From Candidatus Poribacteria bacterium (GTDB taxonomy: Bacteria; Poribacteria; WGA-4E; WGA-3G): a DNA stretch of 64,000 nucleotides. Each line of letters opens with the position of its first letter. Position 1 is the stretch's first letter. This document shows, piece by piece, positions 1,370-59,563 of the stretch. The notes below the pieces were generated by a model. It was not told the DNA's origin, searched no databases, and saw only the letters and a list, made by a program, of their open reading frames with translations. The position numbers and the translations under genes are program-made. The stretch covers positions 1,376,001 to 1,440,000 of the forward strand of contig CAXXUA010000005.1 of assembly GCA_963663765.2 (NCBI GenBank), written 5' to 3'.

Positions 1370-2316
1370 GGGTGTGTAAAGTTTTTGCACAGAGGTACTA
1401 ACTTTTTCTCTTTAGTTCCGTAGGGACGCAATGTTTATAGAAAGACGTTTTTACATCCCTCTCTTTAGTTCCGTAGGAACGACATAGAAGGATAAACATA
1501 TCGTCCCTACCAAATCAACGCCAAATGCGCCAAATCAACGGTATGAATGCCATTAAGGCATTCCCCGTATGGCATTTGGCGGGACTAAAAAGACGTGGGG
1601 ATATGTATTTCTATAAACATATCGTCCCTACGGGACTGAAGAATATGGTTAATATTAACAATATTTCTTTATATTGACACCTAATGACGTTTGACAATCA
1701 AAATCGGCAATTGAATTCGTAGGGGTTGGGTTCCCCAACCCGTTTGGTTTTTGAGTTTGCGTAGATCATGTGTGGAAACCACGCCCCTACGCATACACAA
1801 CTTGAACGTCAAAACTCATTAGGACTCTGTGTCCGCAATCTCTCATTTAATCAATTGCGGCGGGACACAGAGACCCGGGGAATGCCTCAATGGCATTCAT
1901 ACCGTTGATTTGGGGGAATGCCTAAATGGCATTCATACCGTTGATTTGGGGGAATGCCTAAATGGCATTCATACCGTTGATTTGGGGGAATGCCTAAATG
2001 GCATTCATACCGTTGATTTGGGGGAATGCCTCAATGGCATTCATACCGTTGATTTGGGGGAATGCCTAAATGGCATTCATACCGTTGATTTGGGGGAATG
2101 CCAAAAGGCATTCATACCGTTGATTTGGGGGAATGCCAAAAGGCATTCATACCGTTGATTTGGGGGAATGCCTCAATGGCATTCATACCGTTGATTTGGG
2201 GGAATGCCTCAATGGCATTCATACCCGGGGAATGCCAAAAGGCATTCATACCGTTGATTTCTTGATTTCGTCCTACAATGGAGAGTGGGATGTTTGTGCA
2301 AAAACTTTACACACCC
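1370..2316. mobile_element. MITE family A (TIR GGGTGTGTAAAGTTTTTGCACA) carrying several REP-like hairpins and the 36-bp array
   Basis: Perfect 22-bp TIRs; 8-bp target duplication ATTGTGGT at 1362-1369 and 2317-2324; related copies at 3513 and 36625. Confidence 0.85.
1877..2269 (+). repeat. Tandem array (~11 copies) of 35-36-bp hairpin unit GGGGAATGCC-N4/5-GGCATTCATACCGTTGATTTG
   Basis: Direct reading; no unique spacers between units. Confidence 0.9.
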
Positions 2317-2404
2317 ATTGTGGTGCATCACAGTTTAGAGAGTCTTTGGTCTTTGGTATCATTACTTGGTTAACACCCTCTTAATTTTAAAGTAGGAAAT
2401 ATAA

Positions 2405-3511
2405 ATGTTTGAAAACGGACAGGAAGTTGCACAGATTGCGTTATTTCAAGGTGTAGACACCACATTTGAGATCCGAGAAGTGCCGGTAACATCTTTTCCA
2501 AACACCGTTTTGGTGCGGGTCAATTTATCGACCATCTGCGGTTCGGACCTCCACACTGTATCGGGCAGACGTAGTGCTAACGTACCATGTGTGCTTGGGC
2601 ATGAAGCAGTCGGTACTGTCGCTGCACCGACAGGATTACGTTCTGCTGAAGGGAAACCACTTCACGAGGGCAACAGAATTGTATGGAGTCTGACGACTTC
2701 TTGTGGAACATGTCATTTCTGTGTAAACAAGTATCTGCCACAGAAATGCGAAACAATGTTCAAATACGGGCATGCACAGTGTGTAGGTGATGATGAGTTA
2801 TCTGGTGGGTTTGCATCACATATTCAGTTGAAGGCAGGCACAGCAATCTACCATATTCCCGATGCGATTCAAGATGCCGAAGCGGTCCCTATTAATTGTG
2901 CCCTTGCAACAGTCATAAACGGCTTGGAAACGATTGGTACATATCCAGGCGAGACTGCCATTATCCACGGTGCGGGGATGTTGGGCATCTATGCTGCATG
3001 CTATTTGCGTGAACAAGGTTATGACATTGTGGCTATCGTTGATAAAAATCCCCACCGTTTACAGATGGCTGAACAGTTGGGTGCAACACATATCCTTAAC
3101 GCAGACATTACATCTGCTGAAGATATTACAACTATCCTGATAGAGATAACGAATGGACGAGGGATTGACCTTGCAGTTGAAGTCAGTGGCGCACCGTCTG
3201 CCCTGCCTGATATGATTAAATGGTTAGCAATCGGTGGTAGATGTTTGACGCTTGGGTATGTTTACCCACTTGAAAACATTCCTTTTAATGTTCACCAAAT
3301 AGTTACGAAGTGTATTAAGCTGCAAGGTGTTCACAATTATCATTCTACCGTACTAAAAACTGCTTTGAGCTTTATTGAAAACAACAGGACACGTTATCCA
3401 TTTGCAGAACTCATCGGAAAAATCTATCCATTGTCTGAGATTGACGATGCTTTTGCACACGCGTTCCGTCAAGATGTTATCCGCATTGCCATAGACCCGC
3501 GGGTGAATTAA
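2405..3511 (+). CDS. Zinc-binding alcohol dehydrogenase (MDR family)
   Basis: ICGSDLH and GHE motifs, CxxCxxC...C structural Zn site, GAGMLG Rossmann motif; SD AGGA upstream. Confidence 0.92.
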   Translation: MFENGQEVAQIALFQGVDTTFEIREVPVTSFPNTVLVRVNLSTICGSDLHTVSGRRSANVPCVLGHEAVGTVAAPTGLRSAEGKPLHEGNRIVWSLTTSCGTCHFCVNKYLPQKCETMFKYGHAQCVGDDELSGGFASHIQLKAGTAIYHIPDAIQDAEAVPINCALATVINGLETIGTYPGETAIIHGAGMLGIYAACYLREQGYDIVAIVDKNPHRLQMAEQLGATHILNADITSAEDITTILIEITNGRGIDLAVEVSGAPSALPDMIKWLAIGGRCLTLGYVYPLENIPFNVHQIVTKCIKLQGVHNYHSTVLKTALSFIENNRTRYPFAELIGKIYPLSEIDDAFAHAFRQDVIRIAIDPRVN

Positions 3512-3512
3512 T

Positions 3513-4024
3513 GGGTGTGTAAAGTTTTTGCACAGAGGTACTAACTTTTGTTCTCTTTAGTCCCGTAGGGACGCAATGTTTATAGAAAGACGTTATCACA
3601 TCCCTCTCTTTAGTTCCGTAGGAACGACATATAAGGATAAACATATCGTCCCTACGGGACTGAAGAATATGGTTAATAGCAACAATATTTCTTTATATTG
3701 ACACCTAATGAAGTTTGACAATCAAAATCGGTAGTTGAATTCGTAGGGGTTAGGTTCCCCAACCCCTTTGGTTTTTGAGTTTGCGTAGATCATGTGTGGA
3801 AACCACGCCCCTACGAATACACAACTTGAACGTCAAAACTCATTAGGACTCTGTGTCCGCAATCTCTCATTTAATCAGTTGCGGCGGGGCACAGAGACCC
3901 GGGGAATGCCAAAAGGCATTCATACCCGGGGAATGCCAAAAGGCATTCATACCGTTGATTTCTTGATTTCTTGATTTCGCCCTACAATGGAGAGTGGGAT
4001 GTTTGTGCAAGAACTTTACACACC
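3513..4024. mobile_element. MITE family A, second copy
   Basis: Same TIRs and internal sequence as 1370-2316 with shorter hairpin array. Confidence 0.8.
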
Positions 4025-4041
4025 ATTCATAGAAAAACCAA

Positions 4042-4070
4042 TTGAAATAAATTTACTAATGATGTATAAT
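4042..4070 (+). promoter_or_regulatory. Putative sigma70 promoter TTGAAA-N17-TATAAT for the paralog triplet
   Basis: Consensus-like hexamers with 17-bp spacer ~100 bp upstream of 4169. Confidence 0.5.
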
Positions 4071-4168
4071 TTAAAAATCTCATTGCGCTAAGTACGAAAA
4101 ATAATATCCTACCTGATATCAGTAAATTTTTATGAAATTAACCATTTGATAGAAAAGGAGATATTTCT

Positions 4169-4870
4169 ATGCCAAAAAATTTCTACTCACTCCAGATCTT
4201 CTCCTTATTTGTCATCTTGTTCGTTCTCACCGTTGACCTTGCTTATGCGCGAACTTTCAACAACGATTTTGAAACTGGGGACCTTACCGATTGGGAGAAA
4301 ACAGGAACAGCATTTGATTTCCAACCGACTTATGGAGATAACCCAACAGCACGAAACCGGAATCAGCCTTCTCAACATCAAGGTGAGTGGTGGCTTGGAT
4401 TATATGAGAAATACCAAGGTCCCGACAAAGGCGCAGAACTTGGACAGAACCCCGGTGACACACAGGGGGATGCACCTCAAGGAACACTTACTTCAATAGA
4501 GTTCAAACTTATCGGTGAAAAGATGAATTTCCTCATTGGGGGAGGCTATCATCCATGGGAGATTGATGCAAATCCATGTTGTGTCAACCTTGTCATTGAT
4601 GAGGAAGTTAAAAGAACGGCAACTGGCACCACGGTTGACAATGGGAACGAAAGCATGACTCGACAAGAATGGGACATTTCCGAATTTAAGGGGAAAATGG
4701 CAAAAATTGTCATTGTAGATCAAAACAGCGGCGGATGGGGACACCCGAACTTTGATGATGTTCACCAAGCTGATGCCAGTGGTGAAAACATTCCTTGGGA
4801 TCAAGTGCTTACTGTTGAGGCACGTGGGAAGTTAGCTGTCAGTTGGGCACAGATGAAAAAGTATTACTAA
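4169..4870 (+). CDS. Secreted beta-sandwich (carbohydrate-binding-like) protein, paralog 1, with C-terminal KLAVSW tail
   Basis: Signal peptide; DFETGDLTDW, GTLTSxEF, NFLIGGG, WGHxNFDD motifs resembling modules attached to GH32-type enzymes; SD AAGGAG. Confidence 0.8.
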   Translation: MPKNFYSLQIFSLFVILFVLTVDLAYARTFNNDFETGDLTDWEKTGTAFDFQPTYGDNPTARNRNQPSQHQGEWWLGLYEKYQGPDKGAELGQNPGDTQGDAPQGTLTSIEFKLIGEKMNFLIGGGYHPWEIDANPCCVNLVIDEEVKRTATGTTVDNGNESMTRQEWDISEFKGKMAKIVIVDQNSGGWGHPNFDDVHQADASGENIPWDQVLTVEARGKLAVSWAQMKKYY

Positions 4871-4949
4871 TGGCAACTTGATTCTTCATTTCTTATTATT
4901 TCTGATTTAACCGAACACAAAACTCATAAAACAATAAGGAGATATTTCT

Positions 4950-5666
4950 ATGCAAAAAAGATTCTTCACACTCCTGATTCTTGCATTGTTCGTCATCCTG
5001 TTTGTTCTCACCGTTGACCTTACTTATGCAAAGACATTCAACAATGATTTTGAAACGGGAGACCTAACGGATTGGGAAGAGAAAACAGGAGATGCGTTTG
5101 ATTTTCAACCCACTTATGGTGATAACCCAACCGCACGAAACCGTGGACAGCCCTCTAACCATCAAGGCGATTGGTGGCTTGGGTTGGCTGAAAAGTACCA
5201 AGGACCCGTCAAAGGTGCAGCATTGGGCCAAAAAGCTGGTGATATGCCAAAAGACGCTGCTGGTAATTGGGTACCAGACCAACCTCAAGGCACTTTGACA
5301 TCAATTGAGTTCACTATTGTCGGTGAAACGATGAATTTCCTCATTGGTGGAGGTAACCGACCTTGGGATGAAAACCCTGAACCGTGTTGTGTTAACCTCG
5401 TAATTAATGGCGAGGTTGAACGGACTATAACTGGTGAGAGCCATGAAAGCATGAAACGCAAAGAGTGGGATGTTGCCGATTTGAAAGGCAAAACTGCCCA
5501 ACTTGTCGTTGTTGATAATAGCAGCGCCGGATGGGGACATCCAAACTTTGACGATGTTCACCAAGCTGATGCCAGTGGTGATAACATTCCTTGGGATCAG
5601 GTGCTTGCTGTTGACGCACGCGGGAAGTTAGCCGTCAGCTGGGCACAGATGAAAAAGTATTACTAA
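4950..5666 (+). CDS. Secreted beta-sandwich protein, paralog 2
   Basis: Highly similar to 4169-4870; signal peptide; same tail. Confidence 0.8.
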   Translation: MQKRFFTLLILALFVILFVLTVDLTYAKTFNNDFETGDLTDWEEKTGDAFDFQPTYGDNPTARNRGQPSNHQGDWWLGLAEKYQGPVKGAALGQKAGDMPKDAAGNWVPDQPQGTLTSIEFTIVGETMNFLIGGGNRPWDENPEPCCVNLVINGEVERTITGESHESMKRKEWDVADLKGKTAQLVVVDNSSAGWGHPNFDDVHQADASGDNIPWDQVLAVDARGKLAVSWAQMKKYY

Positions 5667-5745
5667 TGGCAACTTGTTCATACATTTCTCATTATTTCTG
5701 ATTTAACCGAACACATAGCTCATAAAACAATAAGGAGATATTTCT

Positions 5746-6441
5746 ATGCAAAAAAGATTCTTCACACTCCTGATTCTTGCATTGTTCGTCATCCTGTTTG
5801 TTCTCACCGTTGACCTTACTTATGCGAAGACATTCAATAACGACTTTGAAACGGGAGACCTAACGGATTGGGAGAAAACAGGAGATGCGTTTGATTTCCA
5901 ACCGACATGGGGTGATAACCCGACAGCACGGAACCGGGGACAACCCTCTAACCATCAAGGAGATTGGTGGCTCGGACTTGCTGAAGCCTATCAAGGACCG
6001 AATAATGAATATGAACAAGTACCAGGTCAACTGGCAGCTGGTGGCGCAGCGGACCGACCTCAAGGCACTTTAACATCCATTGAGTTCATGATCATCGGTG
6101 AAACGATGAATTTTCTTATGGGTGGCGGGAATCGACCTTGGGATAGTAACCCTGAACCGTGCTGTGTTAACCTTGTCATTGATGACAATGTAGAACGAAC
6201 AATGACCGGAAGTAACAACGAAACCATGACCCGCAGAGAGTGGGACGTTTCTAACTTGAAAGGTGAGATCGCAAAACTTGTTGTTGTTGACAATAGCAGC
6301 GGCGGATGGGGACATCCAAACTTTGATGATGTTCATCAAGCCGATGCCAGCGGCGAAAACATTCCGTGGGACTTGGTGACTGCTGTTGAAGCACGCGGGA
6401 AGTTAGCCGTTAGTTGGGCTCAGATGAAGAAGTTTTACTAA
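5746..6441 (+). CDS. Secreted beta-sandwich protein, paralog 3
   Basis: Highly similar to the two upstream genes; duplicated intergenic spacer. Confidence 0.8.
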   Translation: MQKRFFTLLILALFVILFVLTVDLTYAKTFNNDFETGDLTDWEKTGDAFDFQPTWGDNPTARNRGQPSNHQGDWWLGLAEAYQGPNNEYEQVPGQLAAGGAADRPQGTLTSIEFMIIGETMNFLMGGGNRPWDSNPEPCCVNLVIDDNVERTMTGSNNETMTRREWDVSNLKGEIAKLVVVDNSSGGWGHPNFDDVHQADASGENIPWDLVTAVEARGKLAVSWAQMKKFY

Positions 6442-6487
6442 TCCTAAGATTAAGATATTCATCATAAGGATAGATTACGTTCTGTCC

Positions 6488-7441
6488 TTATGATGAAATT
6501 TGTTCTAATCCAGCGCGTTCGCGAAACTTATTGTACGTCTTCAGAATTCCTTGTTCCATCGTATAAGCAGGCGTGAAACCCATTTCCTCAGCAATCGCAG
6601 TAGCATCATAATCCCACGAGATACCAAACACACCCGGTTCCAGTGTAATCTGTGCATCTGGCACTAAAGTCTTCAGATACGCCACTCCCTCTCTCACAGG
6701 TCGGATTCCACCTTTGATATTGAAAACGCGTGTTTTTGTTGTTGAACAAGTGCATGCCAAAACGATAGAACGTGAGACATCCTCCACATATTGCCAGTCT
6801 ACCGAGTCATCACCAAACGGACACGCGTGCGGTTCTTCCATTGCTACTGCTTCAATCATCTTTGTCGTAAAGGAACTCATCCCGCGTGTTCTACCAACCC
6901 CGTAGACTGCGGTAAATCTAAATCCTATTGAATCCACACCGTAAGCATCAAAATAGTGTGTTGCATATCTTTCGTTGAGGGATTTACACGCGCCATAGAT
7001 AAACTTTGGATAATGTGGTGCGTTGTTAGGTATCTGTTGATGGTCATAATCCTCTGGTGCACCGAAGACAGCGACACTGCTTGCCCAGATAACGCGTTTT
7101 AGATTGAAAATCCGCGCTGCTTCAAGCATATTTATCGTGCCTTCACAGACGACTTTCAACGCTTGGGCAGGATTTGCATTGCAGGCTGGAACTTGCCACG
7201 AAGCAAGATGAATAATCCGTTGAATTTCATGTTCCTGAACGGTGCGTAGGACATGCGGAAGGTCTGTAATGTCCCCCTGCACAAAAGTAAAACCTTCAAT
7301 CTGTTCATCCGTGAGAACCATTTTGGGTATAGTTAGGTCGTAAGCGAAATCATAAACGACCACTTTTTCACCGGCGGCTAACAGGTCGCGAATAACATAA
7401 GTACCGATGCATCCCATGCCACCAGTGATCAGATATGCCAT
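6488..7441 (-). CDS. NAD-dependent epimerase/dehydratase (extended SDR)
   Basis: TGGMGCIG Rossmann motif, SS-VFG, YGACK catalytic motif. Confidence 0.9.
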   Translation of the reverse strand: MAYLITGGMGCIGTYVIRDLLAAGEKVVVYDFAYDLTIPKMVLTDEQIEGFTFVQGDITDLPHVLRTVQEHEIQRIIHLASWQVPACNANPAQALKVVCEGTINMLEAARIFNLKRVIWASSVAVFGAPEDYDHQQIPNNAPHYPKFIYGACKSLNERYATHYFDAYGVDSIGFRFTAVYGVGRTRGMSSFTTKMIEAVAMEEPHACPFGDDSVDWQYVEDVSRSIVLACTCSTTKTRVFNIKGGIRPVREGVAYLKTLVPDAQITLEPGVFGISWDYDATAIAEEMGFTPAYTMEQGILKTYNKFRERAGLEQISS

Positions 7442-7492
7442 AGATCATCTCCTTTGTTATCAATGAGGTAAAGCGAAACTACAACAGTGGTT

Positions 7493-7849
7493 CTACTGCA
7501 TATCTATGCTATCAGATTGCGGTTTCTTGATATTCATCGGTTCTTCAACATTGACGAGAATTTCGTCCCCCTCAACTTTTACAGGATAGATAGGGATAGT
7601 CTCCTCACCAGGCCAGACGCATTCCCCAGTTTTTATATCAAACTCCCACATGTGCATTGGGCACGTGACACATCCTTTATCTATAAAACCGTAAGTCAAT
7701 ACCCCACCCAAGTGTGGACAAATATTATTCATTGCATAATACTCACCCTCAACGTTATAGATTCCGATAAAAACACCATCAACCTTGACACCGATGCAGC
7801 TACCCGGTTGTATTTGCTCGGTTGTCGCCGCTTTTATAAATTGTGACAT
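7493..7849 (-). CDS. Rieske [2Fe-2S] ferredoxin
   Basis: CPH...CPMH Rieske ligands; 118 aa. Confidence 0.92.
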   Translation of the reverse strand: MSQFIKAATTEQIQPGSCIGVKVDGVFIGIYNVEGEYYAMNNICPHLGGVLTYGFIDKGCVTCPMHMWEFDIKTGECVWPGEETIPIYPVKVEGDEILVNVEEPMNIKKPQSDSIDMQ

Positions 7850-7872
7850 ATCTGATGTAACTCCAATATAAT

Positions 7873-8029
7873 CAGGACTTACGCAAAAACGGTAGGCGGT
7901 GAATGCCTAAATGGCATTCATACCGTTGATTTGGTGCTTTGTAAGCGCGCTGGAAACCGAAAAAATGCTGAAAATTACACCATTTTTGTCATAATTCTTC
8001 ATCAAATCATGAAAACTGCGTAAGTCCTG
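7873..8029. mobile_element. MITE family D (TIR CAGGACTTACGCA) with REP and inserted 36-bp micro-element
   Basis: TIRs CAGGACTTACGCA/TGCGTAAGTCCTG; related copies at ~24446-24601, 49814-49966, 52623-52787. Confidence 0.75.
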
Positions 8030-8079
8030 ATAATAAAATACAAAACCAATAAGGTTTATCCCATTGATTTTTGAGATAA

Positions 8080-9744
8080 TTAACGTGTTAAAACTTTTCC
8101 TTCACCGCGCGGATCCGTACCGCCTTGTTGACATACCCCACCATCCCACAGTCGAATAACGTGTCCTGGTCCGCCTATACCACCACTTGCGGTAATTTCA
8201 TGCCCAAGTTCGCGCAAGCCTACAAGCGTGTCTTCACCTGCGCGCGTTTCCACTTGGATAGGTTCGGCACCGTCGCTGTGAAACCGAGGTGCGTCTAATG
8301 CTGCTTGTGCTGACATTTCCAAGTCCATAAGGCTTACACTAATATTAAGTTGATTGTTGGGGATTGTGCGTCCCCCAGGAATGCCGTAAGTGGCAAAAGG
8401 CATGCCATCGTGTGTTGCAAGGCATGGTGCCATATTGTGCAACGGACGTTTCCCTGGACCGATAGAATTCGCGTACCCCGGTCTTGGCTCAAAACGACCA
8501 ACACCATGTCCGAATAGCAGACCAGTTCCAGGAACTGTTACCATTGATCCGAAACCACCTCCGTGGGTCTGGGTTAACGATACCATATTCCCTTCAACAT
8601 CTGCTGTAGAGATGTGGCTTGTGCAGTGCATCGGTTCGTAATAGACTATTTCTCCGCGTTGTGGGGATTTGAGACCTGCGCTTAACTTCTTACTAAGTTG
8701 CATCGTGAAACCATCCGAGAGTTCTTCGTCGATGTCTATGTCAACGAAATTTGGATCACCGTATTTCCGAAGTCTTTCCACCCAAGCAATCTTCATCGCT
8801 TCAGCAAAAAGGTGAAACCTTTCAATGAGAGACATCTCAGCCACATCATAAGCTTCTACTAATCGGAGCATCTGTAGCGTTGTGAGTCCACCTGCGCCGA
8901 GTGGTGCTGTATGGACTGAATAACCACGATACAGGATTTCATAAGGTTGGGTAATTAAGGGACGATATTGTTTTAGGTCATTTAGGGTTAGAATACCCCC
9001 TAATTCATGAATGTGGTTGGTGATTGTTTCAGCGATTTTCCCTTCGTAAAATGCTGTATGTCCTCCTTCTGCTATAATCTCTAATGTGCGTGCAAGTTCC
9101 GGATTTGTAAGGGTTTCCCCTTGTTTTGGTGGTCTGCCATTTTTCAGAAATACCCGTGCAGTTTCTGGAAAATCACGTTTCCACCGTTCTGCATTTCCAG
9201 CAATTCCGCCGCGATTCGCGCGGTTCGGTGCATATCCGTAACGTGCTGAGTTGATTGCCGGACGTAAGACATCTGTAAGCGCAAGACTACCGTATTGCTT
9301 CAACGCTATACAGAGTCCCGCGACAACACCAGGAACTCCAATAGACAGCGGACCGTGAACATTGACACGTCCTGGTACGCGATAACCTGCTGGTACATCT
9401 GGTGCATTTTCAATTGTGAACATGTCTTCTGAGGCTGCGGCTGGTGCGGCAGTATTGTAATCAATGGCTACGACATCTTTTGTTTTCTTACGGTAGATTA
9501 GCATGCACCCACCGTAGCCAGCAATGCCGTTATGTGAAGGTTCAACAACGCCTTCTGCAAATGCGGCTGCAACAGCAGCGTCCACGGCATTTCCACCCGC
9601 AAGGAGCATATCAAAACCCGCTTTAGCAGTGCGTGGATGTGGACCGACAACTGTACCAAGTTCTTTTTTAGGTGAATTCACAAGTTTGTCCCTTTCGTTG
9701 AAGGTAATACTTGGAATTTTAAAGGGTTTTTGGTGTATTGTCAA
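8080..9744 (-). CDS. ggt: Gamma-glutamyltransferase family protein
   Basis: GGNAVDAAVA, GVPG, TSHIS nucleophile Thr, PGKRP, DPR end motif; start codon uncertain. Confidence 0.9.
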   Translation of the reverse strand: MTIHQKPFKIPSITFNERDKLVNSPKKELGTVVGPHPRTAKAGFDMLLAGGNAVDAAVAAAFAEGVVEPSHNGIAGYGGCMLIYRKKTKDVVAIDYNTAAPAAASEDMFTIENAPDVPAGYRVPGRVNVHGPLSIGVPGVVAGLCIALKQYGSLALTDVLRPAINSARYGYAPNRANRGGIAGNAERWKRDFPETARVFLKNGRPPKQGETLTNPELARTLEIIAEGGHTAFYEGKIAETITNHIHELGGILTLNDLKQYRPLITQPYEILYRGYSVHTAPLGAGGLTTLQMLRLVEAYDVAEMSLIERFHLFAEAMKIAWVERLRKYGDPNFVDIDIDEELSDGFTMQLSKKLSAGLKSPQRGEIVYYEPMHCTSHISTADVEGNMVSLTQTHGGGFGSMVTVPGTGLLFGHGVGRFEPRPGYANSIGPGKRPLHNMAPCLATHDGMPFATYGIPGGRTIPNNQLNISVSLMDLEMSAQAALDAPRFHSDGAEPIQVETRAGEDTLVGLRELGHEITASGGIGGPGHVIRLWDGGVCQQGGTDPRGEGKVLTR

Positions 9745-9762
9745 GTTTTTCTATGAATTTGG

Positions 9763-23915: not shown

Positions 23916-24620
23916 GTAGCACAAACTTTTAGTTTGTGCAGATGCGGACACAAACTAAAAGTTTGTGCTACTACACCTTTGGTAGGTTCGATTTCTAACC
24001 AATGCAGAATACCACACGGGGAATGCTATATAGCATTCATACCCGGTGAATGCCTAAATGGCATTCATACCGTTGATTTCTTGATTTCTTGATTACTTGA
24101 TTTGGCGTATTCTGCCGAACATATTGTCCTATTATTTCTAAAGTCTACTATATATAACTCAAGTTGCTACCTATAAGGTTTAGACGAATAAACACCTTTT
24201 TTATAGAGTATAAAACACTTTTCGGTAGTATTTGTAGCACAAACTTTTAGTTTGTGCATCTTTATGACGCAAACTAAAAGTTTGCGCTACAAAATATAGG
24301 CTATTTATCAACACTTTTTTGATAATAGATGGTGTTTCTAGGTCTAATTATTGTAGGTAGCAACTTGGGTTATATATAGGATTCAATATGCTAATTCGGG
24401 GTTGAAAACCCCTCCCACAAGAGAAACGCCAACACTTTTTTCTTAAGGACTTACGCAGTTTTCATGTTCCAATCAAGAATTAAGACGAAAACGATGTAAT
24501 TTTCAGCATTTTTTAGGTTTCCAGCGCCAAATCAACGGTATGAATGCCTTTTGGCATTCCCCGCCTACAAAGCACGCCTACCGTTGGGTGCGTAAGTCCT
24601 GTTCTTAAATTTACGCTCAT
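23916..24620. repeat. Repeat cluster: GTAGCACAAACTTTTAGTTTGTGC doublets, TIR element 24154-24373, 36-bp micro-elements, MITE D
   Basis: Inverted doublets at 23916-23971 and 24234-24290; TAACTCAAGTTGCTACC/GGTAGCAACTTGGGTTA ends. Confidence 0.75.
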
Positions 24621-36624: not shown

Positions 36625-37644
36625 GGGTGTGTAAAGTTTTTGCACAGAGGTACAAACTTTTGTTCTCTTTAATCCCGTAGGGACGCAATGTTTATAGAAA
36701 GACGTTATCACATCCCCTCTCTTTAGTTCCGTAGGAACGACATAGAAGGATAAACATATCGTCCCTACCAAATCAACGCCAAATGCGCGTATGGCATTTG
36801 TCGGGACTAAAAAGACGTGGGGATATGTATTTCTATAAACATATCGTCCCTACGGGACTGAAGAATATGGTTAATATTAACAATATTTCTTTATATTGAC
36901 ACCTAATGAAGTTTGACAATCAAAATCGGTAGTTGAATTCGTAGGGGTTGGGTTCCCCAACCCGTTTGGTTTTTGAGTTTGCGTAGGGGCGTGGAAACCA
37001 CGCCCCATAAGCGTCAATTTAAGGATTTTGACCTCTTGTGGGAGGGGTTTTCAACCCCGATTTGACAGAAAATAAACATAAAATCGGGGTTGAAAACCCC
37101 TCCCACAAGAGAAAATGCAACACTACTTCTTAAATTGACGCCTATGGGGCGTGGCAACCACGCCCCTACGAATACACAAAATACACAACTTGAACGTCAA
37201 AACTCATTAGGGCTCTGTGCCCCGCAATCTCTCATTTAATCATTGTGGGGCGGGCACAGAGCCCCGCCCTACAATGAAGAATGAGTAGTTTCCTTGTTTT
37301 CGTTCAAACATGTCGGGATCCAGTTGATCAATGAGAGGTTATCAATCCCAGTCCCTATCTGATTTCAAAAGGGATCGAAAGGTCTCAAATCACGATACCC
37401 TACCTTTGAAACCCACATTATGACTGGGTACCAACATTTTCAAGGCATCTTTGGTATCGGAAAAAGCGATAAAATCGTAGTTTTTGTTTCCTTTTTCTTT
37501 GAAAGGTTCGTTCAAGTTCTGTGCTACCTTTTGAGGTATTATTTTCTCAATGCGGGTATGGGTTTGTGTGTGCTCATAGTTGGTATGGTTTTCCACATTC
37601 ATTGGACAAAAACAAGGTAGTTTGTGCAAAAACTTTACACACCC
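36625..37644. mobile_element. MITE family A, third copy, with nested MITE E (37005-37146) and extra ~340-bp internal segment
   Basis: Same TIRs and left 600 bp as 1370-2316. Confidence 0.8.
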
Positions 37645-46502: not shown

Positions 46503-46850
46503 CTAGTGCTTAGTCAACATACTATTGTCGGTCTCGATTCGGAGATCGCTCCTACAGAAGTCTTGTGTATTGTGTGTATTGTAGGAGGGAACTCCGATTC
46601 CCGACTACTTTTTAGACCTATCAATAAACACTTGACTAAGCACTAGGATTTACAGGAGTTATCTCATCCAATCCTATTCCAAAAGAGAGTATAAACGCAT
46701 ATCAAAAACCCTTGATGAGGTAAATCCTGAAAATCTGTAAATCCTGAAAATCCTGGTTCAGACAAAGAAAAGGTATGAATGCCATTAAGGCATTCCCCGG
46801 GGCGTTCCTACCTGTGCAAGTGTGTTATTAATTCCATAATTTACCATAAT
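46503..46850. repeat. Repeat cluster: TIR element CTAGTGCTTAGTCAA (46503-46645) with REP doublet, AATCCTG repeats, partial 36-bp micro-element
   Basis: Perfect 15-bp inverted ends; segments shared with 12030-12136 and 37645-37690. Confidence 0.7.
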
Positions 46851-48751: not shown

Positions 48752-48761
48752 ACATTGCACC

Positions 48762-49809: not shown

Positions 49810-49813
49810 TAAT

Positions 49814-50789: not shown

Positions 50790-50961
50790 ATGTTGCTCCT
50801 TGTGTATAATACCATTTCTAATTTTCCCAAACCCTGTAGGCGCGTTTTGTAAACGCGCCGGACTTCACTGCCAAATTACCGAAATATTTTCTTAATCTTC
50901 ATCCAGTTTGTGTACTAAGATGCACAATCCAACAAATTATGCTACTATGTGACAACTTAGG

Positions 50962-52380: not shown

Positions 52381-52622
52381 GTAAACTTCCTATTGTTAGA
52401 ATTGACTTTTGATAAGAATACATCATCTACCCTTGTTTGTCAATAACAAATTAACCAGAAGACAGGACTACTTGGTCTTCCTAATTTTGATTTCTATAAA
52501 CAGTCTCCTTATGGTAGGAGCGACCTCCTGGTCGCGATTTTCTCAGAAAAACAGGTTAAATTAGATCTTTTTAATCCAATTACACAGTAATGTTATTGGA
52601 AATCCCAATAATCAAACATTAA

Positions 52623-52787
52623 CAGGACTAACGCACCCAACGGTAGGCGCGCTTTGTAGGCGGGGAATGCCAAAAGGCATTCATACCGTTGATTTCTTGA
52701 TTTGGCGCTGGAAACCGAAAAAATGCTGAAAATTACACCATTTTCGTCATAATTCTTCATCAAATCATGAAAACTGCGAAAGTCCTG
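52623..52787. mobile_element. MITE family D with inserted micro-element (52662-52704)
   Basis: Matches 7873-8029. Confidence 0.72.
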
Positions 52788-53369
52788 ATTAAATACAAAA
52801 CATACCAAACACCCATATAATGTATAATACAACTATGAAAATCCATGATTCAACATCACTACTCAAAAAGGACTTTATAACAAGATTTATATGTCAGAGA
52901 GAAATACCATTTCAGAATACCGTAGACACAAAAAACACCGAAAAAAACCGTACCAAAAAACGAAAAATAAATCGAAAATAACTACAACAATATCTCCGTT
53001 TAACCTATACAAATACTGGACGTATAACCAATTAACAAAACCGTACCACAAACCGAAAAAGCCGTACCAATTGGTACGGCTTTTCTGAAGTAGAATATTC
53101 TTATGAATTCTCAAGAAAATCGCAAACAATTTACATGCATTCTTCACAAAAAAAGACCAACAACAAAATGCAAAGATGCCAGATAAAACAGATATACAAA
53201 AAACTTAGAATTAATATTTTTGTTTTCGAAAAATATCCCTTTCAGACCTTACTACGACTGGGATTAAAGCCAATGTACTAACAAAATATTGGTTGGATAT
53301 TTCTATTTTCGCAACGAAATAAAAATATGTCCTTTACACAACTTTTCACAACCATCAATCTGATTCTTA

Positions 53370-53397
53370 TTGACATTTTCCCTTAACCTGCTATACT
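53370..53397 (+). promoter_or_regulatory. Putative sigma70 promoter TTGACA-N16-TATACT with extended -10 TG
   Basis: Direct reading upstream of 53563. Confidence 0.5.
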
Positions 53398-53562
53398 TTT
53401 GACAATAGAAAACTTTCAGACAGCATCGTTTTGAAACATACTGGTGAACTTTAGATTTATTGAGACAGAAGGTAATAAGATTGGAAGGTGAATCAACAAC
53501 CCCACAAGCGGTGGAGGGAAGGTTTCTAATAGATCCGAATCCTTCTCAAAAAACAACGTGTA

Positions 53563-54534
53563 ATGATGTTACAACAGCAGAATAAACACCTTTACCCGAT
53601 GGGATGGGTAAATATTATAGACTATGCGTTTAGTCTGTATCGGGGACATTTTCAGAGTTTTCTCGGTATTGTAGCGATGTACGCGGGAATAGATGCGTTA
53701 CGAGAATGCGTGCTACTACTCTTATGGAAATATGAAGTCTATCACTTAATAGATGAGTTATTCTCTAGCCTACTTATGACATTAGTAATAGGTATGTTTA
53801 TTGTTTGCTCAAGTGAAATCTATCTTGATAAAACTATCACATTTCGTGAAATTCTACGAAGGTTCGGTTCCCTATTTTCTCGATACTTGCACATTTCATT
53901 TGTTTACCTGATACCTATTTCACTCTGGGAATTGTTATCAGAGATAAATAAGAATCCTTCTCTATTGGCTTTGCTCTTACTGCTTTTGAGTATCCCTTTT
54001 CTATTCTATTATTATATTGCTTGGTGCTTGTATGGTCCTGTCGTTATTCTTGAAACTCCTATGTCGCATCATCCACTCACATGGAGTCGGTATTTAGTAA
54101 AAGGGGCATGGTGGCGAATCTGTGGTACAATCATCGCCGTTTACTTTATCATGGCCGCGATCGAATTGATACTCAATATCTCCATCATGTTAATATTTGC
54201 GTTATCAGGATATGGTGAAGGAACATGGTTTGACATGATGCAATCAATCATTGCATCTGCATTTGAATCGGACAGGGACAAATCACTCACACTATCGTTC
54301 ATAATAAGCGCGTTTCTGGACGTTGGTATTTCTGCTGTTATAACCACACCGATTTACGCAATCAGTGTGATGCTGATCTATTTTAATAGAAAGATTGAGA
54401 CCGAAAGATTTGATATTGTCCCAGAAAACTCTCACGACTCACTACTGAAAAGTAATACCAATTCTGAATCACAGAGGACGCAGAGGACACGGATTACACA
54501 GATAAGCCCAACTGAGGTGGTATTGCTTAGTTAA
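53563..54534 (+). CDS. Polytopic membrane protein (GDPD membrane-domain/YciC-like)
   Basis: IID.AF.LYR..F start, several TM helices, S..LVKG.WWR, LIYF..K.E.E.FD. Confidence 0.75.
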   Translation: MMLQQQNKHLYPMGWVNIIDYAFSLYRGHFQSFLGIVAMYAGIDALRECVLLLLWKYEVYHLIDELFSSLLMTLVIGMFIVCSSEIYLDKTITFREILRRFGSLFSRYLHISFVYLIPISLWELLSEINKNPSLLALLLLLLSIPFLFYYYIAWCLYGPVVILETPMSHHPLTWSRYLVKGAWWRICGTIIAVYFIMAAIELILNISIMLIFALSGYGEGTWFDMMQSIIASAFESDRDKSLTLSFIISAFLDVGISAVITTPIYAISVMLIYFNRKIETERFDIVPENSHDSLLKSNTNSESQRTQRTRITQISPTEVVLLS

Positions 54535-54725
54535 TGCTTCTTCTCATGCAATGCAATCTAATGCTGCTGTCTTATTCACGAAATCCGCGATTCTGTCAGC
54601 GAAAAACTGTACACACCCAGCGGAAAGGGAAGAACAAGATTTTGGTTAGATCTAATGTGTTTTACAATTTATCGGTTTTAATATTTTAATATAAGACTCA
54701 CTCATACATCCGGGAGGAACAGCAC

Positions 54726-57700
54726 TTGCCAATTTCACATAACTTACACAACGACTCTTACAAACAAATAAAACGAACAGTTACTTATCTTCTAACAATC
54801 CTACTCGCGCTCGGTATATTCGCGTCCATCAGTCACGCTCAGCAACCCCATATAGTTTTCGTCGTGGGTGAAAATGAATACCGTTCCGAAGTAACGATGC
54901 CAGCATTGGCAAAGGTATTGGCAGACCATTACGGTTTTCGAACCACTGTACTTCTTGATGATGTAATTCAGGGCGGCGCAGGCAACAACATCAACGGACT
55001 TGAAGCACTTGAAACCGCTGACCTACTCGTCCTATACCTACGATTCCGACAACTCCCGGATGACAACCTTGAAATGTTACAAAAATACATTGACCGCGGA
55101 GCTCCCATCCTCGCTTTCCGTACAACAACACACGCCTTTAATTATAGAAACTCCGATCCGCGAGCGGAGTTTTGGAACAGTTTCGGTGCACGTGAACTCG
55201 GGGCACCATGGATACATCACTATGGACATGGAGCAAGTACCGATGCCACAACCATCGGTGAGCACCCTATCCTCACAGGTGTGAGTCCAGAATTCCACGT
55301 CCGTTCCTGGACTTATCATGTTAGACCTAACTACCCACCGAAAGACGCGCAGATATTAGTACAGGGACGACCCGTATTTCCAGATGGAAAGCGAGGGGAC
55401 GAAAAGACACTCAATCCAATCGCATGGACACACACCCACACTGGAGGCGGACGTGTCTTTACAACAACGATGGGACACCCAGAAGACTTCAACGTGGTTG
55501 ACTTTCGCAGACTTGTAGTTAACGGTGTCTACTGGTGCCTCAAAAGCAAAGCACCGCAACGATATGCTCCCGGATGGCGCGCAAAAACAGGACAAAAGTG
55601 GCGAGATATGGACTACGGACCCTACATTTCTACTGCCGTTGCCGCACATCCAAAAAACATTACATACAAAGGTATTATTATCCCACTTACGCCAGATCAC
55701 ACTGGCGGGACAGTCGTATTTGACACAGACCTATTACGTTACTCCGCAGGGTGGATAGGTGGACTAATTGACTACGCAGATGTTGAATTTAACGGATGGC
55801 ATCAAAGTTACCCATCTATTGAAGGCGATCTCCTATGGGAAAACAAGGTGGGACCAGGTTGGGCAAAGGACGGCAGCTTTGAGGATACAAGAACCGTGCC
55901 TTTCGGTCCCCTACCCAGAGATTGGGCACATTGGAAAGGGTTGTATCTTCACAAAAACAATGTTATTCTGTCTTATACAGTTGGCACGCGTTCAGTCCTC
56001 GAATCCCCATCGCTTGAGAGTGGAGACAAAGGGAACGCTTTTGCACGCACGTTCCACCTCGGTCCCTCCGCATCAAGCACCCTTGTTCGTGTTGCAACAA
56101 TCCCTGACGGTAAAGCATCCTTATTGCCTGATTTTTCACGTGGTACCGCTGCTGCCCTATGTCTGCCAGATACAGAACCCGGTACTCCAGGCAGTCTACT
56201 TGCAGCTTTGATTGACGCACCAGATGGCACAAAGTGGGAAACAGCACAGGACGAACTCCGTATCAAGTTCCCACCGTCCGACAAAGCATTCACCGCAAAA
56301 ATTTTGATTACACCTACTCATCAGGATAAACTCAACTTATCCACATGGACACAATTCGTGGATACCTCAACGCCAGCAACTGATTTAACAACACTGATCA
56401 ATGGCGGACCACAACGTTGGGAAGAAAAAGTCGTCATGACAGGACAAACCGATATACAACGAAAACGTAGGGTGGAAACGCTAAAAATTGAACCAGGAAC
56501 AACGAAGATGCACTTTGAATTAGATGGATATCTACCGAATGTGCTTTCACTGGACAATCTAACACCTGCCCCTGACGGGGTTGGCAACGCAGATCAATAC
56601 ATTGCAGTCCTAGTCCCATCTGAAAAGAACTCAGAGCCTGATGGTGCACAATTACAGAAGAACGATCCAACCTTGATCGGACACTGGGGTTTTGACGAAG
56701 GCACAGGTTTAAACGCAGCAAGCACAACACAAGGAAAGTCAACAATCGTTCTTGATGATGTTCGTTGGGATGCTGGACGACAAGAAAATTGCCTTGTATT
56801 TGATGGAGACGCAGAAGCTCGTTTTGATGAAAACTTTGATCTCGATTTTGACACCTCTGACCTAACTTTTGCTACATGGATCAACACTGAAAAAGACGGT
56901 TCAATTTTCTCTGAAGCACTTGAGGAACCAGAATGGGTACCAAATGGCAAAACTTTCTTTATCCGAGGCGGATATTTAGCGTTTGATGTCGGATGGGTCG
57001 GTGTCATCAGCAACACTTCAGGAAATGCAAAACCTGTAAATGACGGGGTTTGGCATCATGTCGGATTAACATGGAAACATCAAACGGGGGTAGTGACACT
57101 CTTTTTGGACGGAGAGGTTACCGCAAAAGGCACGCTTAAGCCAGAAGAAGCATTGGAAGATGACATTTGGAGACTCGGATTCACCTCAGAAAATTTCCCA
57201 GAGAATTCCCCCAGACTTGATGGGAAACTTGATGAGATGTATCTATACAATCGCGCACTCTCCTCCAAAGAAATGAACAGTCTATACCAACGTTTGCTGG
57301 AACCACCCGTGATCGCAGTGGCACTGGTCGATCCGATCGAGGGAGCAAAATGGACAATTGACTCTAACCGAGTTTACATCAATATGTCTACAGACAAAAC
57401 CGCATCGATGCTTACATGGGATGGTCGTAAATCGCAGCTCGCAGAATTTGCACGGTTAGCAGCAAACGGAGGAGTCGACCCAGCACAACCGTTTGCAATA
57501 GATAAAATCAACTGGCCTACTCAAAATCCATGGGATTCTTGGATACGTTTCGGTGGGTTAGACTTCTTCCCTGATGGAAATCGTGCTGCGCTTTCCACAT
57601 GGAACGGCGATGTCTGGACAGTCACCGGACTCAATGATACATTGGAAAAACTTGAGTGGCAACGTATCGCAACCGGACTAAACCAACCGCTCGGACTAAA

Positions 57701-58847
57701 AATCGTTGATAATCAGATTTACGTCGTCGGACGCGACCAGATCACACGACTCGTTGATCTCAACGAAGATGGCGAAACCGACTTCTACGAAAACTTCAAC
57801 AACGACACCTACAACAGTGAACATTTCCACGAACCATGTATGGATCTGCAGACCGATGCAGAGGGTAACTTCTACTACATGAAAGCCGCACGACACGCAC
57901 TGAAGGCACAACACCCACACCACGGCACACTCATCAAAGTGACACCCGATGGGGAAAAGTCCACCGTCATTGCTTACGGATTTCGAGCCTCAAATGGACT
58001 CGGCATCAGTCCCGGTCCTATATTCTACGGTACTGATCAGGAAGGATTCTGGATGCCGGCTAACCGAATTAACCGTATCGCTGAATCTGGCAAATTCTAC
58101 GGCAACGCGTGGGGTTGGTACCCATCTGATCAACCGCCAACTACCTATGAACCACCGCTCTGCTGGGTCGCTCCATTCGTTGACCGATCCCCCGCTACAC
58201 TGGTTTGGATTCCAACCGATACTTGGAGTGAAATGGAAGATTCAATACTCTCGGTCAGTTACGGAACAGGGAAAGTATATGCTGTCCTTCAACAAGAAGT
58301 CAACGACAACGTCCAAGGTGTCCTCACCGATCTCGGTGTGGAACTATCCACAGGTGTGATGCGCGGACGATTCCACCCAATCACTAAAGAACTCTACATT
58401 GCGGGACTATTCGGATGGTCTTCCAATAAACAGGAAGATGCTGGTTTCTATCGGATACGCATGACTGGCGCACCACTCCGCACACCAAAATCGTTCCGCG
58501 CTGTCCACGAAGGCTTAATCGTCAGTTTCTATACTCCTCTTGAACCAAAATCCGCAGCAAAAACAGAAAACTGGAAAGTACAAAGTTGGGAATATCGCTG
58601 GACAGAAAACTACGGTTCACCGCAGCTAAAACGTTCCGGTGAAAACGGTAGAGACACGCACACCGTTGAATCTATGACCCTATCAGAGGACGGTAAAACT
58701 GCTTTCCTAAAAATACCGACCATAACACCTACAATGCAGTTACACGTTGAAATCAAACTCAACTTTGCAGACGGTGTGCCGCTGGATTGCTATTTGCACG
58801 GCACAATACATGCCCTTGAAGACACACAAAACACGGAGGATCAATAG
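54726..58847 (+). CDS. Large secreted multidomain protein: ThuA-like + DUF6797-like + LamG + beta-propeller
   Basis: GENEYRSE..GGRVFTTTMGHPEDF (ThuA-like); WHHVGLTW..LDG..LDE..LYNRALS (LamG); GDVW..IATGL.QPLGL (propeller); SD GGAGG + TTG. Confidence 0.8.
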   Translation: MPISHNLHNDSYKQIKRTVTYLLTILLALGIFASISHAQQPHIVFVVGENEYRSEVTMPALAKVLADHYGFRTTVLLDDVIQGGAGNNINGLEALETADLLVLYLRFRQLPDDNLEMLQKYIDRGAPILAFRTTTHAFNYRNSDPRAEFWNSFGARELGAPWIHHYGHGASTDATTIGEHPILTGVSPEFHVRSWTYHVRPNYPPKDAQILVQGRPVFPDGKRGDEKTLNPIAWTHTHTGGGRVFTTTMGHPEDFNVVDFRRLVVNGVYWCLKSKAPQRYAPGWRAKTGQKWRDMDYGPYISTAVAAHPKNITYKGIIIPLTPDHTGGTVVFDTDLLRYSAGWIGGLIDYADVEFNGWHQSYPSIEGDLLWENKVGPGWAKDGSFEDTRTVPFGPLPRDWAHWKGLYLHKNNVILSYTVGTRSVLESPSLESGDKGNAFARTFHLGPSASSTLVRVATIPDGKASLLPDFSRGTAAALCLPDTEPGTPGSLLAALIDAPDGTKWETAQDELRIKFPPSDKAFTAKILITPTHQDKLNLSTWTQFVDTSTPATDLTTLINGGPQRWEEKVVMTGQTDIQRKRRVETLKIEPGTTKMHFELDGYLPNVLSLDNLTPAPDGVGNADQYIAVLVPSEKNSEPDGAQLQKNDPTLIGHWGFDEGTGLNAASTTQGKSTIVLDDVRWDAGRQENCLVFDGDAEARFDENFDLDFDTSDLTFATWINTEKDGSIFSEALEEPEWVPNGKTFFIRGGYLAFDVGWVGVISNTSGNAKPVNDGVWHHVGLTWKHQTGVVTLFLDGEVTAKGTLKPEEALEDDIWRLGFTSENFPENSPRLDGKLDEMYLYNRALSSKEMNSLYQRLLEPPVIAVALVDPIEGAKWTIDSNRVYINMSTDKTASMLTWDGRKSQLAEFARLAANGGVDPAQPFAIDKINWPTQNPWDSWIRFGGLDFFPDGNRAALSTWNGDVWTVTGLNDTLEKLEWQRIATGLNQPLGLKIVDNQIYVVGRDQITRLVDLNEDGETDFYENFNNDTYNSEHFHEPCMDLQTDAEGNFYYMKAARHALKAQHPHHGTLIKVTPDGEKSTVIAYGFRASNGLGISPGPIFYGTDQEGFWMPANRINRIAESGKFYGNAWGWYPSDQPPTTYEPPLCWVAPFVDRSPATLVWIPTDTWSEMEDSILSVSYGTGKVYAVLQQEVNDNVQGVLTDLGVELSTGVMRGRFHPITKELYIAGLFGWSSNKQEDAGFYRIRMTGAPLRTPKSFRAVHEGLIVSFYTPLEPKSAAKTENWKVQSWEYRWTENYGSPQLKRSGENGRDTHTVESMTLSEDGKTAFLKIPTITPTMQLHVEIKLNFADGVPLDCYLHGTIHALEDTQNTEDQ

Positions 58848-58914
58848 CACTTCCATTTTCGCAAAATTTACATGGACAGGAAGGCATCAACGAATCTATA
58901 GCTTTCAACTTTAG

Positions 58915-59563
58915 CAGGACTTACGCACCCAACGGTAGGCGCGCTTTGTAGGCGGGGAATGCCAAAAGGCATTCATTCCGTTGGTTTCTTGATTTGGTGC
59001 TTTGTAAGCGCACCCTGGATGGTAGGCGTGCTTTGTAAGCGCGCCCCCACCTGCACTCCCCTGCAGTCGTGCTTTGTAAGCGCTCCCCGATGGTAGGTGT
59101 GCTTTGTAAGCGCGCCCCCCACCTGCACTCCCCTGCAGTCGTGCTTTGTAAGCGCGCCCCCCACCTGCACTCCCCTGCAGGCGTGCTTTGTATGCGCCCC
59201 CCACCTGCACTCCCCTGCAGGCGTGCTTTGTAAGCGCGCCCCGATGGTAAGCGCGCTGGCACATCAAGTCTCAACAGCGCGCTTACAAAGCACACCTACC
59301 GTGTGAGAAAAATTTATTACCGAATTAATGAATTAATCATCATAAAGTTTGTGCTACAAATTGTCCAAATAATTATATGTTTTACTATAATCGGGGTTGA
59401 AAACCCCTCCCACAAGAGAAAATACCAACACTTTTTTCTTAAATTGACGCTTATGGGGTTGGGTAACCCAACCCCTACGTTTCGTGCCGCATGTGCAAAT
59501 AGTTACGAGTTTCACTATAATTCACTCCCACAAAAGGTCAGAATCCCTAAATTGACGCTTATG
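58915..59563. repeat. MITE D left end, micro-element, short expansion of the GCGTGCTTTGTAAGCGCG REP, and MITE E fragments
   Basis: Same unit and terminal doublet as 1-1180. Confidence 0.8.

Follow-up and report, generated by a model that had tools for sequence, protein, structure and literature searches.

The DNA analysed here, a 64-kb stretch that we call the window (G000:C5:1376001-1440000), belongs to a Candidatus Poribacteria genome (G000; 6.35 Mb, 15 contigs, ~41% G+C) and is dotted with copies of a non-coding hairpin-plus-tail family of 35–37 nt, termed E36. The core of the element, E35, consists of GGGGAATGCC, a loop of 4–5 nt and GGCATTCATACCGTTGATTT, and usually takes one extra base, G or C, to become E36; its 7-bp stem (GAATGCC/GGCATTC) is followed by the 3′ tail ATACCGTTGATTT. 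At up to three mismatches the 20-mer GGCATTCATACCGTTGATTT matches the window 18 times, compared with 0 in each of 100 shuffles, and every copy that an earlier note on this DNA had listed is present. The array that the note counted as eleven units is also there, with the somewhat different make-up given in Table 1, as are the three empty sites it named and the two copies of a 34-bp sibling, the one at 1511-1580 with the 36-mer nested in it. The whole genome holds 481 complete modules, 275 of which match the consensus exactly at all 30 non-loop positions.

E36 resides in the loops or stems of hairpins, which may be repetitive extragenic palindromic (REP)-like hairpins, sibling elements or E36 itself. 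The main host in this genome is REPa, with two sites (GGTAGGC^GTGCTTTGTAAGC^GCGC, the caret marking the point of insertion). Further hosts are the loop of S34, the 34-nt sibling (GCCATAC^GCGC), the loop of REPc (GGTAGGAGCGACC-TCCC-GGTCGCGAC, ~900 copies), a REP of GTAGGAGCGATC.. type, host D (GAGACCC^CGCCCTAC), the octamer repeats of host F (AAATCCTG), the palindrome CTCTACCC^GACCTAC and E36 (CATACC^G). Other species add hosts of their own, such as GTTCC^GTAGGAAC, GGGAACTCC^GATTCCC and GCACTCC^GAGTGC. In the window, the single copies at 7898, 24528, 52662 and 58954 all lie within one REP family, and the units of the array at 1877-2269 have mixed loops (TCAAT, TAAAT, AAAA). The genes flanking the copy at 7898 are 52–82 bp apart in 14 of 24 congeners, versus ~207 bp here. 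Genome-wide, E36 occupies 54 S34 loops, and empty paralogues exist for 46 of these. REPa itself (GGTAGGCGTGCTTTGTAAGCGCGC; window 1000-1180) has hundreds of copies in the genome, often as inverted doublets or in arrays with a period of 40–80 bp, and the tandem AAATCCTG-type octamers at window 46700-46770, which act as an insertion host, approximate the reverse complement of E36 tails (AAATCAAG).

Table 1. E36 copies and empty sites in the window (window positions), and Y1_Tnp matches in the genome, including REP-associated tyrosine transposase (RAYT) genes (contig positions).
Feature	Position	Strand	Details
S34 sibling, 34 nt (GACAAATGCCATAC^GCGCATTTGGCGTTGATTTG), in GTCCC^GTAGGGAC	1511..1580	-	E36 (1531-1566) in loop at ATAC^GCGC
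E36 array in host D (..CACAGAGACCC / .. / CGTCCTACAATGG)	1877..2269	+	9 complete head-to-tail units, then a copy truncated after CATACC + C, a complete copy and a CTTGATTT octamer tail
Compound element in host D	3901..3978	+	truncated copy, C, complete copy, 2 octamer tails CTTGATTT
Single E36, GGTG variant, REPa site 1 (GGTAGGC^GTGCTTTGTAAGCGCGC)	7898..7933	+	within ~170-bp repeat
Truncated copy, complete copy, 3 CTTGATTT tails	24018..24104	+	in hairpin loop GCAGAATACCACAC^GCGTATTCTGC
E35 at REPa site 2	24528..24562	-	filled GTAGGC/E/G GCGCTGG vs empty GTAAGC^GCGCTGG
Partial copy: hairpin and CCCC end, no tail	46772..46798	-	adjoins AAATCCTG octamer repeats (host F)
E35 and one tail, REPa site 2	52662..52704	+	
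Degenerate E35 (2 mismatches in 20-mer) and one tail, after GCTTTGTAGGC	58954..58996	+	
Empty REPa (GGTAGGC^GTGCTTTGTAAGCGCGC)	1100..1142	+	C/G at 1119/1120; empty-site control for 7898
Empty S34, loop ATAC^GCGC unfilled	36769..36802	-	empty-site control for 1531
Empty host D (CACAGAGCCCC^GCCCTACAATG), GAGCCCC^GCCC	37250..37275	+	C/G at 37265/37266
RAYT-1	C4:621598-622074		sole intact RAYT; GTAGGAG..-type REP arrays on flanks
Second RAYT (locus L103)	C10:24997-25277		frameshifted, cut by contig end, directly downstream of REPa array with one E36
Three IS605 copies (tnpA + tnpB)			
One tnpA remnant			

The structure of E36 is constrained, as is evident from compensatory stem changes, tail-sharing siblings and fold energy. 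As single-stranded DNA the element is predicted to fold into a 7–8-bp hairpin of −8.2 kcal/mol (z = −5.0), and compensatory double changes are found at two stem pairs (42 in total): 17 copies have A-T in place of G-C, and 25 have T-A in place of C-G. The tail GTTGATTT is common to at least five hairpin families, and three compensatory stem pairs separate two of these from each other; a tail identical to that of E36 is borne by the sibling families CAAATGC/GCATTTG and CAGAAGC/GCTTCTG, and a longer T variant has a second internal hairpin. On the opposite strand, E36 reads AACGGTATG followed by the 7-bp hairpin, and the resident REPa reads AACGGTAGG followed by a hairpin; the reverse-strand tetranucleotide of E36 is GTAT, as against the GTAG-type of REPs. 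Because of this resemblance, the E36 tail at REPa site 1 can pair with the upstream AACGGTA of the host, giving an extended hairpin of −18.3 kcal/mol. Rfam returned 0 matches at gathering score in the whole window. Reading the sequence 3′ of the hairpin, we found no T-run on either strand, which, together with the rarity of E36 between convergent genes (the least frequent site class, 42/396), speaks against a function as a terminator. Neighbouring gene direction shows no bias relative to E36 orientation (121 versus 130), and by a crude call of open reading frames (ORFs), 20 of 401 sites lie inside ORFs of at least 120 aa.

To describe the sites, nested and tandem copies were merged into 448 compound sites, 416 of which are outermost. 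At the outermost sites the element is preceded by C in 385 cases (T 18, A 10, G 3), and its last GATTT is followed by G in 353 (C 40, A 19, T 4); the insertion between C and G that the earlier note had described holds for the preceding C, while the following base is not always G. Other species behave alike: among 111 copies at 80 of their loci, 105 follow a C, and the remaining six are joints inside tandem arrays. Orientation is fixed relative to each host, and a reverse-oriented flank never occurs among the common left flanks. Clustering of the flanks divides the 416 sites into 64 context clusters and 116 context-by-loop combinations.

Paralogous copies of the hosts allow filled and empty sites to be compared directly. 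A search with 120 nt of flank on each side, requiring a match of at least 45 nt per side, found an empty paralogue for 278 of the 448 compound sites. When at least 60 nt per side were required, a long paralogue was available for 324 sites, of which the nearest was empty at 213 (198 with empty paralogues only, 15 with the empty one closer), filled at 62 (58 with the filled one closer, 4 with filled paralogues only) and tied at 49; the other 124 sites had none. The best of these pairs leave no doubt that the indel is discrete: they are 95–99.6% identical over 137–240 nt, the sole difference being E35+G at C^G. Thus C5(-)33719 and C13:76078-76316 share 99.6% identity over 240 nt and differ by E35+G between GCCATAC and GCGC, C3+41210 and C3:42222-42460 form a filled/empty pair of 99.2% identity, and the members of a 96.6%-identical pair differ in a single step by an entire 72-nt nested compound. 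No filled/empty pair has a target duplication beyond an ambiguous single G. Together, these comparisons show E36 to be copied as a discrete unit at or near hairpin tips after C, in fixed orientation and without duplication. We consider it probable that E36 is an inserting micro-element, and the minimal non-autonomous unit within other palindromic repeats that the note had envisaged is borne out by the number of flank contexts, the prevalence of empty nearest paralogues and the new hosts in other species.

Gain, as opposed to precise loss, appears to be the polarity of these indels because the flanks fall into 64 context clusters and empty forms are the large majority in every host family. Contigs of four Logan runs, compared with a 19.9-kb stretch containing seven E36 sites, end at every site; one loose contig end resembles an empty S34 loop, in a form indistinguishable from a paralogue. 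The closest relative in Joint Genome Institute (JGI) metagenomes is only 79% identical in protein.

Many E36 copies are nevertheless passengers of larger repeats and arrays and not insertions of their own. The loop variant follows the host context: TAAAT prevails at REPa site 1 (66 of 91 copies), TTAAT in S34 loops (38 of 54) and AAAA at site 2 (32 of 50); ATACG is found in CTGCAGGC arrays, and arrays with an 82-bp period and ~170-bp repeats carry E36 copies along. It could accordingly be argued that E36 never inserts and is a module of composite REP-type repeats that spreads by host amplification, array duplication and recombination, the empty sites being older forms or deletions. The tie between loop and host, the cargo of arrays and larger repeats, the 62 sites with filled nearest paralogues and the existence of chimeric flanks are all in keeping with such a module. 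It does not readily account for the diversity of contexts and context-by-loop combinations, the 213 of 324 nearest paralogues that are empty, the 99%-identical pairs that differ by the unit alone or the presence of E36 in different hosts in other species, where REPa is nearly absent, and we regard it as improbable.

The sequences at the junctions complicate the picture of a clean insertion. In line with the note, there is no target duplication, but in several hosts the filled junction differs by 1–3 bases from the empty sequence plus insert. Of 896 empty REPc copies, 819 have TCCC, TCCT or TCAC as the loop and none has CGCC or CACC, whereas filled ones mostly read ACC-C[E35](G/A)-C(C/T)GG. Empty REPa site 2 reads GTAAGC in 221 of 238 copies and GTAGGC in 1, whereas the filled site is mostly GTAGGC. 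In a further REP, empty GTAGG-AG-CGATC corresponds to filled GTAGG-C[E35]CGATC, and in the AAATCC-T-G octamer repeats empty AATCC-T-G corresponds to filled AATCC-C[E35]G, in a pair 97.4% identical. E36 also nests, as proposed in the note, in its own CCG, at CATACC^G, but the empty CATACC-G-TTGATTT becomes CATACC-C[E35]C-TTGATTT, a self-nested junction that fits none of the four insertion rules we tried (E35, E36, 1-nt duplication, cyclic permutation); no single exact rule among these fits all hosts. Decay through CpG methylation was considered for the T-versus-C differences and set aside, the observed/expected CpG ratio of 0.93 lending it weak support.

The E36 units in filled REPc copies vary widely in their loops, and most of these copies have an empty site as nearest paralogue. 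Our reading is that E36 travels with 1–3 flank bases of its donor and joins where the host resembles ..TAGG-C or ..ACC-C; since the junction bases are of the donor type, copying would be templated, guided by homology or microhomology. In agreement with this, the loop variant is tied to the host context, and some copies have chimeric flanks, such as a REPc left flank with a REPa, host D or octamer-repeat right flank, which suggests that E36 copies serve as sites of ectopic recombination. Examples of such mixed-host flanks lie at C7:105056, C15:481639 and C5:1740177 (coordinates on the given strand).

In the genome there are 111 instances of a copy cut short after CATACC with C and then a complete copy behind it. 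The number of CTTGATTT tails per element ranges from 0 to 5 (268, 161, 33, 15, 3 and 1 elements, respectively), and tails accompany 93 of 98 elements with a truncated partner versus 121 of 383 without one. In two other species, elements ending in ..GATTC bear CTTGATTC or CTGATTC tails, and because tail endings match the element in this way, the tails look like reiterated element ends. The longest head-to-tail arrays comprise 9 and 8 units. The variable number of terminal repeats, the truncated copies and the head-to-tail arrays are reminiscent of template jumping, as would be expected if E36 spread through an RNA copy and reverse transcription, a route reportedly proposed for cyanobacterial small dispersed repeats. 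The reverse transcriptase domain RVT_1 (PF00078), however, has 0 matches in G000, which is 97.8% complete and the genome richest in E36, and truncated copies lack the tail-bearing end, not the opposite one; spread through RNA seems to us very improbable. We also looked for a long element bounded by E36 ends and rejected it, as the 80 inverted tail pairs within 6 kb have no preferred spacing. Only 6 of these pairs are less than 140 nt apart. A few perfect palindromes have the tail at both ends, among them those of ~47 nt at G000:C4:107366-107411 and C5:581181-581226 (CAAATCAACGGTATGAAT..ATTCATACCGTTGATTTG). The latter are inserted centrally in palindromes of the GTAGGTC^GACCTAC type and have the look of E36 copies folded back on themselves.

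The distribution of E36 is narrow. With one genome per species, 78 of 80 among the matches listed for the exact 36-mer carry the label Candidatus or uncultured Poribacteria, on which ground a cyanobacterial (Nostoc) origin was rejected. A survey of 121 genomes of the order, with the 20-mer at up to one mismatch, found it in all 30 genomes of the genus of the window and in 34 of 38 of the sister genus (64/68), in 0 of 5 genomes of the other genera of the family and in 1 of 47 (a single copy) in three other families. Copy number in this survey ranges from 2 to 468 per genome, the highest being that of G000, and viral contigs gave 0 matches to the 20-mer. Where species share flanking genes at 80–85% identity, most E36 inserts are confined to one of them; one cross-species pair of 93.6% identity may share a copy. 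REPa, for all its prominence as a host here, has just 0–6 copies in five congeners, all of which bear E36, so REP families are species-specific. Since these congeners keep E36 and positions are mostly not shared, E36 outlives and changes its hosts, one master sequence persisting across two genera. At two loci of other species (L016, L054), E36 lies ~140 nt beyond one orthologous gene block, in opposite orientations.

For the agent of this spread, the earlier note had pointed to an HUH/Y1 or IS110-like enzyme encoded elsewhere. A Y1 HUH enzyme, either a RAYT or the TnpA of IS200/IS605, would act in trans, excising or copying the hairpin strand of E36 and joining it after C in other single-stranded hairpins. 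Such an enzyme would be consistent with the hairpin and its conserved flank, with an orientation that is fixed and with insertion that leaves no target duplication, and the reverse strand, AACGGTATG plus hairpin, resembles REPa. G000, with the highest copy number, has six Y1_Tnp matches (Table 1), among them an intact RAYT, a broken RAYT beside a REPa array and three IS605 tnpA genes. E36(+) also lies opposite the G-rich strand with a bias of 162:99; REPa (111:72), REPc (124:64) and S34 (28:9) show an equal bias, however, so that of E36 may be inherited from its hosts. The repeats that flank the RAYT genes of G000 belong to other REP families, none to E36, the ends of IS605 (3 copies) and of IS1341-like elements (~21) are CCCCA/TGGGG-type hairpins unlike E36, and the replacement of junction bases in several hosts also sits poorly with a Y1 enzyme.

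Comparison between genomes argues against the Y1 proposal as well. The Pfam model Y1_Tnp has 0 matches in three congeners, G024 (a single contig), G001 and G010, which hold 186, 120 and 136 E36 copies, respectively. Nor are these copies decayed: exact 20-mers among copies with up to three mismatches number 89/212 (42%) in G024, 81/165 (49%) in G001 and 94/158 (59%) in G010, compared with 164/467 (35%), 138/309 (45%) and 338/587 (58%) in the Y1-bearing G017, G016 and G000. REPIN populations (inverted REP doublets), by contrast, are reported to decay without a RAYT (bioRxiv 10.1101/2021.07.10.451892). RAYT-1 homologues, present in 65 of 81 genomes of the family, do not follow E36 copy number; G020 and G007, with 4 and 10 E36 copies, have strong matches, and none was found in G001, G010, G024 and G052, which have 85–186. 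We therefore judge a Y1 mover rather unlikely. RAYT-1 (159 aa) lies in a locus (G000:C4:620961-623487, L102) with GTAGGAGGGAACTCCGATTCCCGA and GTAGGAGCGATCTCCGAATCGCGA arrays on both sides, with a period of ~37–40 bp, and a further RAYT-like fragment of 35 aa is found at C5:1704569-1704673.

No IS110-type transposase came to light in G000, where the DEDD domain PF01548 has 0 matches (control genomes matched), so the second suggestion of the note fares no better than the first; a search for IS91-type Y2 enzymes gave 0 matches in G000 but also in the control genomes, and so carries no information. Insertion-sequence (IS) families of G000 were found by megablast self-comparison, and IS605/IS1341 and the other families were rejected as autonomous partners, as their ends are unlike E36. 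One of these is a tnpB-only, IS1341-like element of ~1.44 kb with one 396-aa ORF and ~21 copies (for example C2:189515-190954, L143), whose hairpin ends resemble those of the IS605 copies, tnpA being present in only three copies. The note had also looked to E36-like termini around a transposase or recombinase gene; none turned up, and no gene-bearing element with such ends was found in G000, where the GTTGATTT end was seen on no other element class than E36, the T variant and the small hairpin siblings.

A dedicated enzyme of an unrecognised class, present in all E36-positive genomes and recognising the tail CGTTGATTT beside any hairpin, would explain why at least five hairpin families have a common tail, why the ends are sharp and why one master sequence occurs in two genera; the share of the master sequence is, moreover, independent of Y1. 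Against it stand the failure to find either a candidate gene or a gene-bearing element with E36-like termini, the empty result for viral contigs and the altered junction bases, which are unusual for end-specific recombinases. We hold such an enzyme to be unlikely.

The mechanism that we tentatively put forward, at somewhat less than even confidence, is that the machinery of the host spreads E36 by copying it on hairpin DNA in single-stranded form, coupled to replication or repair. This machinery may be aided by an unrecognised conserved factor, with no element-specific Y1, IS110 or reverse transcriptase involved. Copies could arise by three routes: rare copy-in into new hairpins, guided by a few bases of likeness; homology-guided transfer within one host-repeat family through shared stems, by gene conversion or single-strand annealing at the replication fork, which would carry along 1–3 donor junction bases; and hitch-hiking as host repeats or arrays duplicate. 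Octamer tails and arrays may grow by slippage.

Several points weigh against this account or the insertion on which it builds. Filled/empty polymorphism was seen neither in one population nor among close strains, and the case for gain over precise excision is one of polarity. Each altered junction might conceivably be a founder variant with a later spread, which is hard to square with the REPc data. The right end is sharp (E35 ± one base) across dozens of hosts that are unrelated, and microhomology is not evident there; an enzyme that recognises ends would explain this better than copy-choice, and a single master sequence in two genera suggests a specific recognition factor. The absence of Y1 from G024, G001 and G010 rests on one Pfam model, and four intact Y1 genes are present in G000, the genome with the most copies (468). 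We are doubtful of the strongest form of the host-machinery account, in which E36 and its tail-sharing siblings would be self-perpetuating single-strand hairpin replicators without a dedicated transposase, copied into hairpin tips by host replication and repair as second-order parasites of REPs. If it were true, a 36-nt master would have been kept alive across two genera while the REP families it parasitised came and went, and this second-order REP parasite would be among the smallest mobile DNAs known.

Among known systems, the closest analogues of E36 are the small dispersed repeats (SDRs) of cyanobacteria, followed by the REP/REPIN-RAYT system. SDR1-8 of Nostoc and related cyanobacteria, reportedly described by Elhai et al. 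in 2008, are said to be very small hairpin repeats of 21–27 nt, nested, clade-confined and associated with short tandem repeats; we know of no mover for them. By description, SDRs and E36 are alike in being tiny dispersed hairpins, nested in repeats, associated with tandem repeats and confined to a clade, while E36 differs in its length of 35–37 nt, its Poribacteria-type phylum, its conserved 13-nt 3′ tail and its target after C. Two citing papers describe SDR5 as a 21-nt sequence associated with HIP1, of unknown function (PMC13756078), and SDRs as ‘some 20 bp long’ and elements that ‘might be mobile’ (PMC2884548).

E36 shares with REPs and REPINs the form of a short non-autonomous hairpin, arguably with a conserved 5′ motif, the hundreds of copies, vertical inheritance and a stable master sequence in different species, and its reverse strand resembles REPa; a REP is a short palindrome preceded by a GTAG-type conserved motif. 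E36, however, occurs mostly as singlets, nested or head-to-tail, and not as inverted doublets, flanks no RAYT, does not decay in Y1-free genomes and lives inside other REPs. Two sources describe REPINs as non-autonomous short hairpins with copies in the hundreds, vertical inheritance and a master sequence that does not change from species to species (bioRxiv 10.1101/2021.07.10.451892; PMC3116915). Our search of the literature on RAYT, REPIN and nesting returned general REPIN papers only, and full-text searches found no account of such repeats in Poribacteria.

Other mobile elements are less similar. Insertion sequences that target REP hairpins, reportedly described by Tobes and Pareja in 2006, share the type of target with E36, but encode a transposase, whereas E36 is 36 nt long and non-coding. 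E36 and the miniature derivatives of IS200/IS605, known as palindrome-associated elements, have in common hairpin ends, the lack of a duplicated target and insertion behind a sequence that is short and specific; E36, in contrast, has a single hairpin, ends unrelated to the resident IS605/IS1341 and a target that is loose beyond the preceding C. From MITEs (miniature transposable elements with inverted repeats) of the DDE type it is set apart by its unlike ends (GGGG.. / ..GATTTG) and by the lack of target-site duplication beyond the ambiguous single G.

E36 has real but unproven potential beyond known repeat types. It offers a case independent of, and cleaner than, the cyanobacterial repeats, in an uncultivated phylum, with sharp ends, a simple target rule, hundreds of filled/empty paralogue pairs and Y1-free congeners that serve as natural ‘knock-outs’. 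With it one can test whether hairpin DNA of ~36 nt can spread without an enzyme of its own, how REP-type repeats recombine and why the genomes of sponge symbionts are so repeat-rich. In practice, E36 repeats break short-read assemblies of Poribacteria-type genomes, as seen from the Logan contigs.

Towards the left end of the window, an inverted repeat, GGTGGGTGTGTAAAGTTTTTGCACA / TGTGCAAAAACTTTACACACCC, at 1366-1390 and 2296-2320 encloses a stretch of ~950 bp that is free of ORFs and packed with repeats. This stretch, between 1366 and 2320, contains both the S34/E36 nest and the E36 array, and the GGTGGGTGTGTAAAGTTTTTGCACA / TGTGCAAAAACTTTACACACCC motif also borders many copies of host D.

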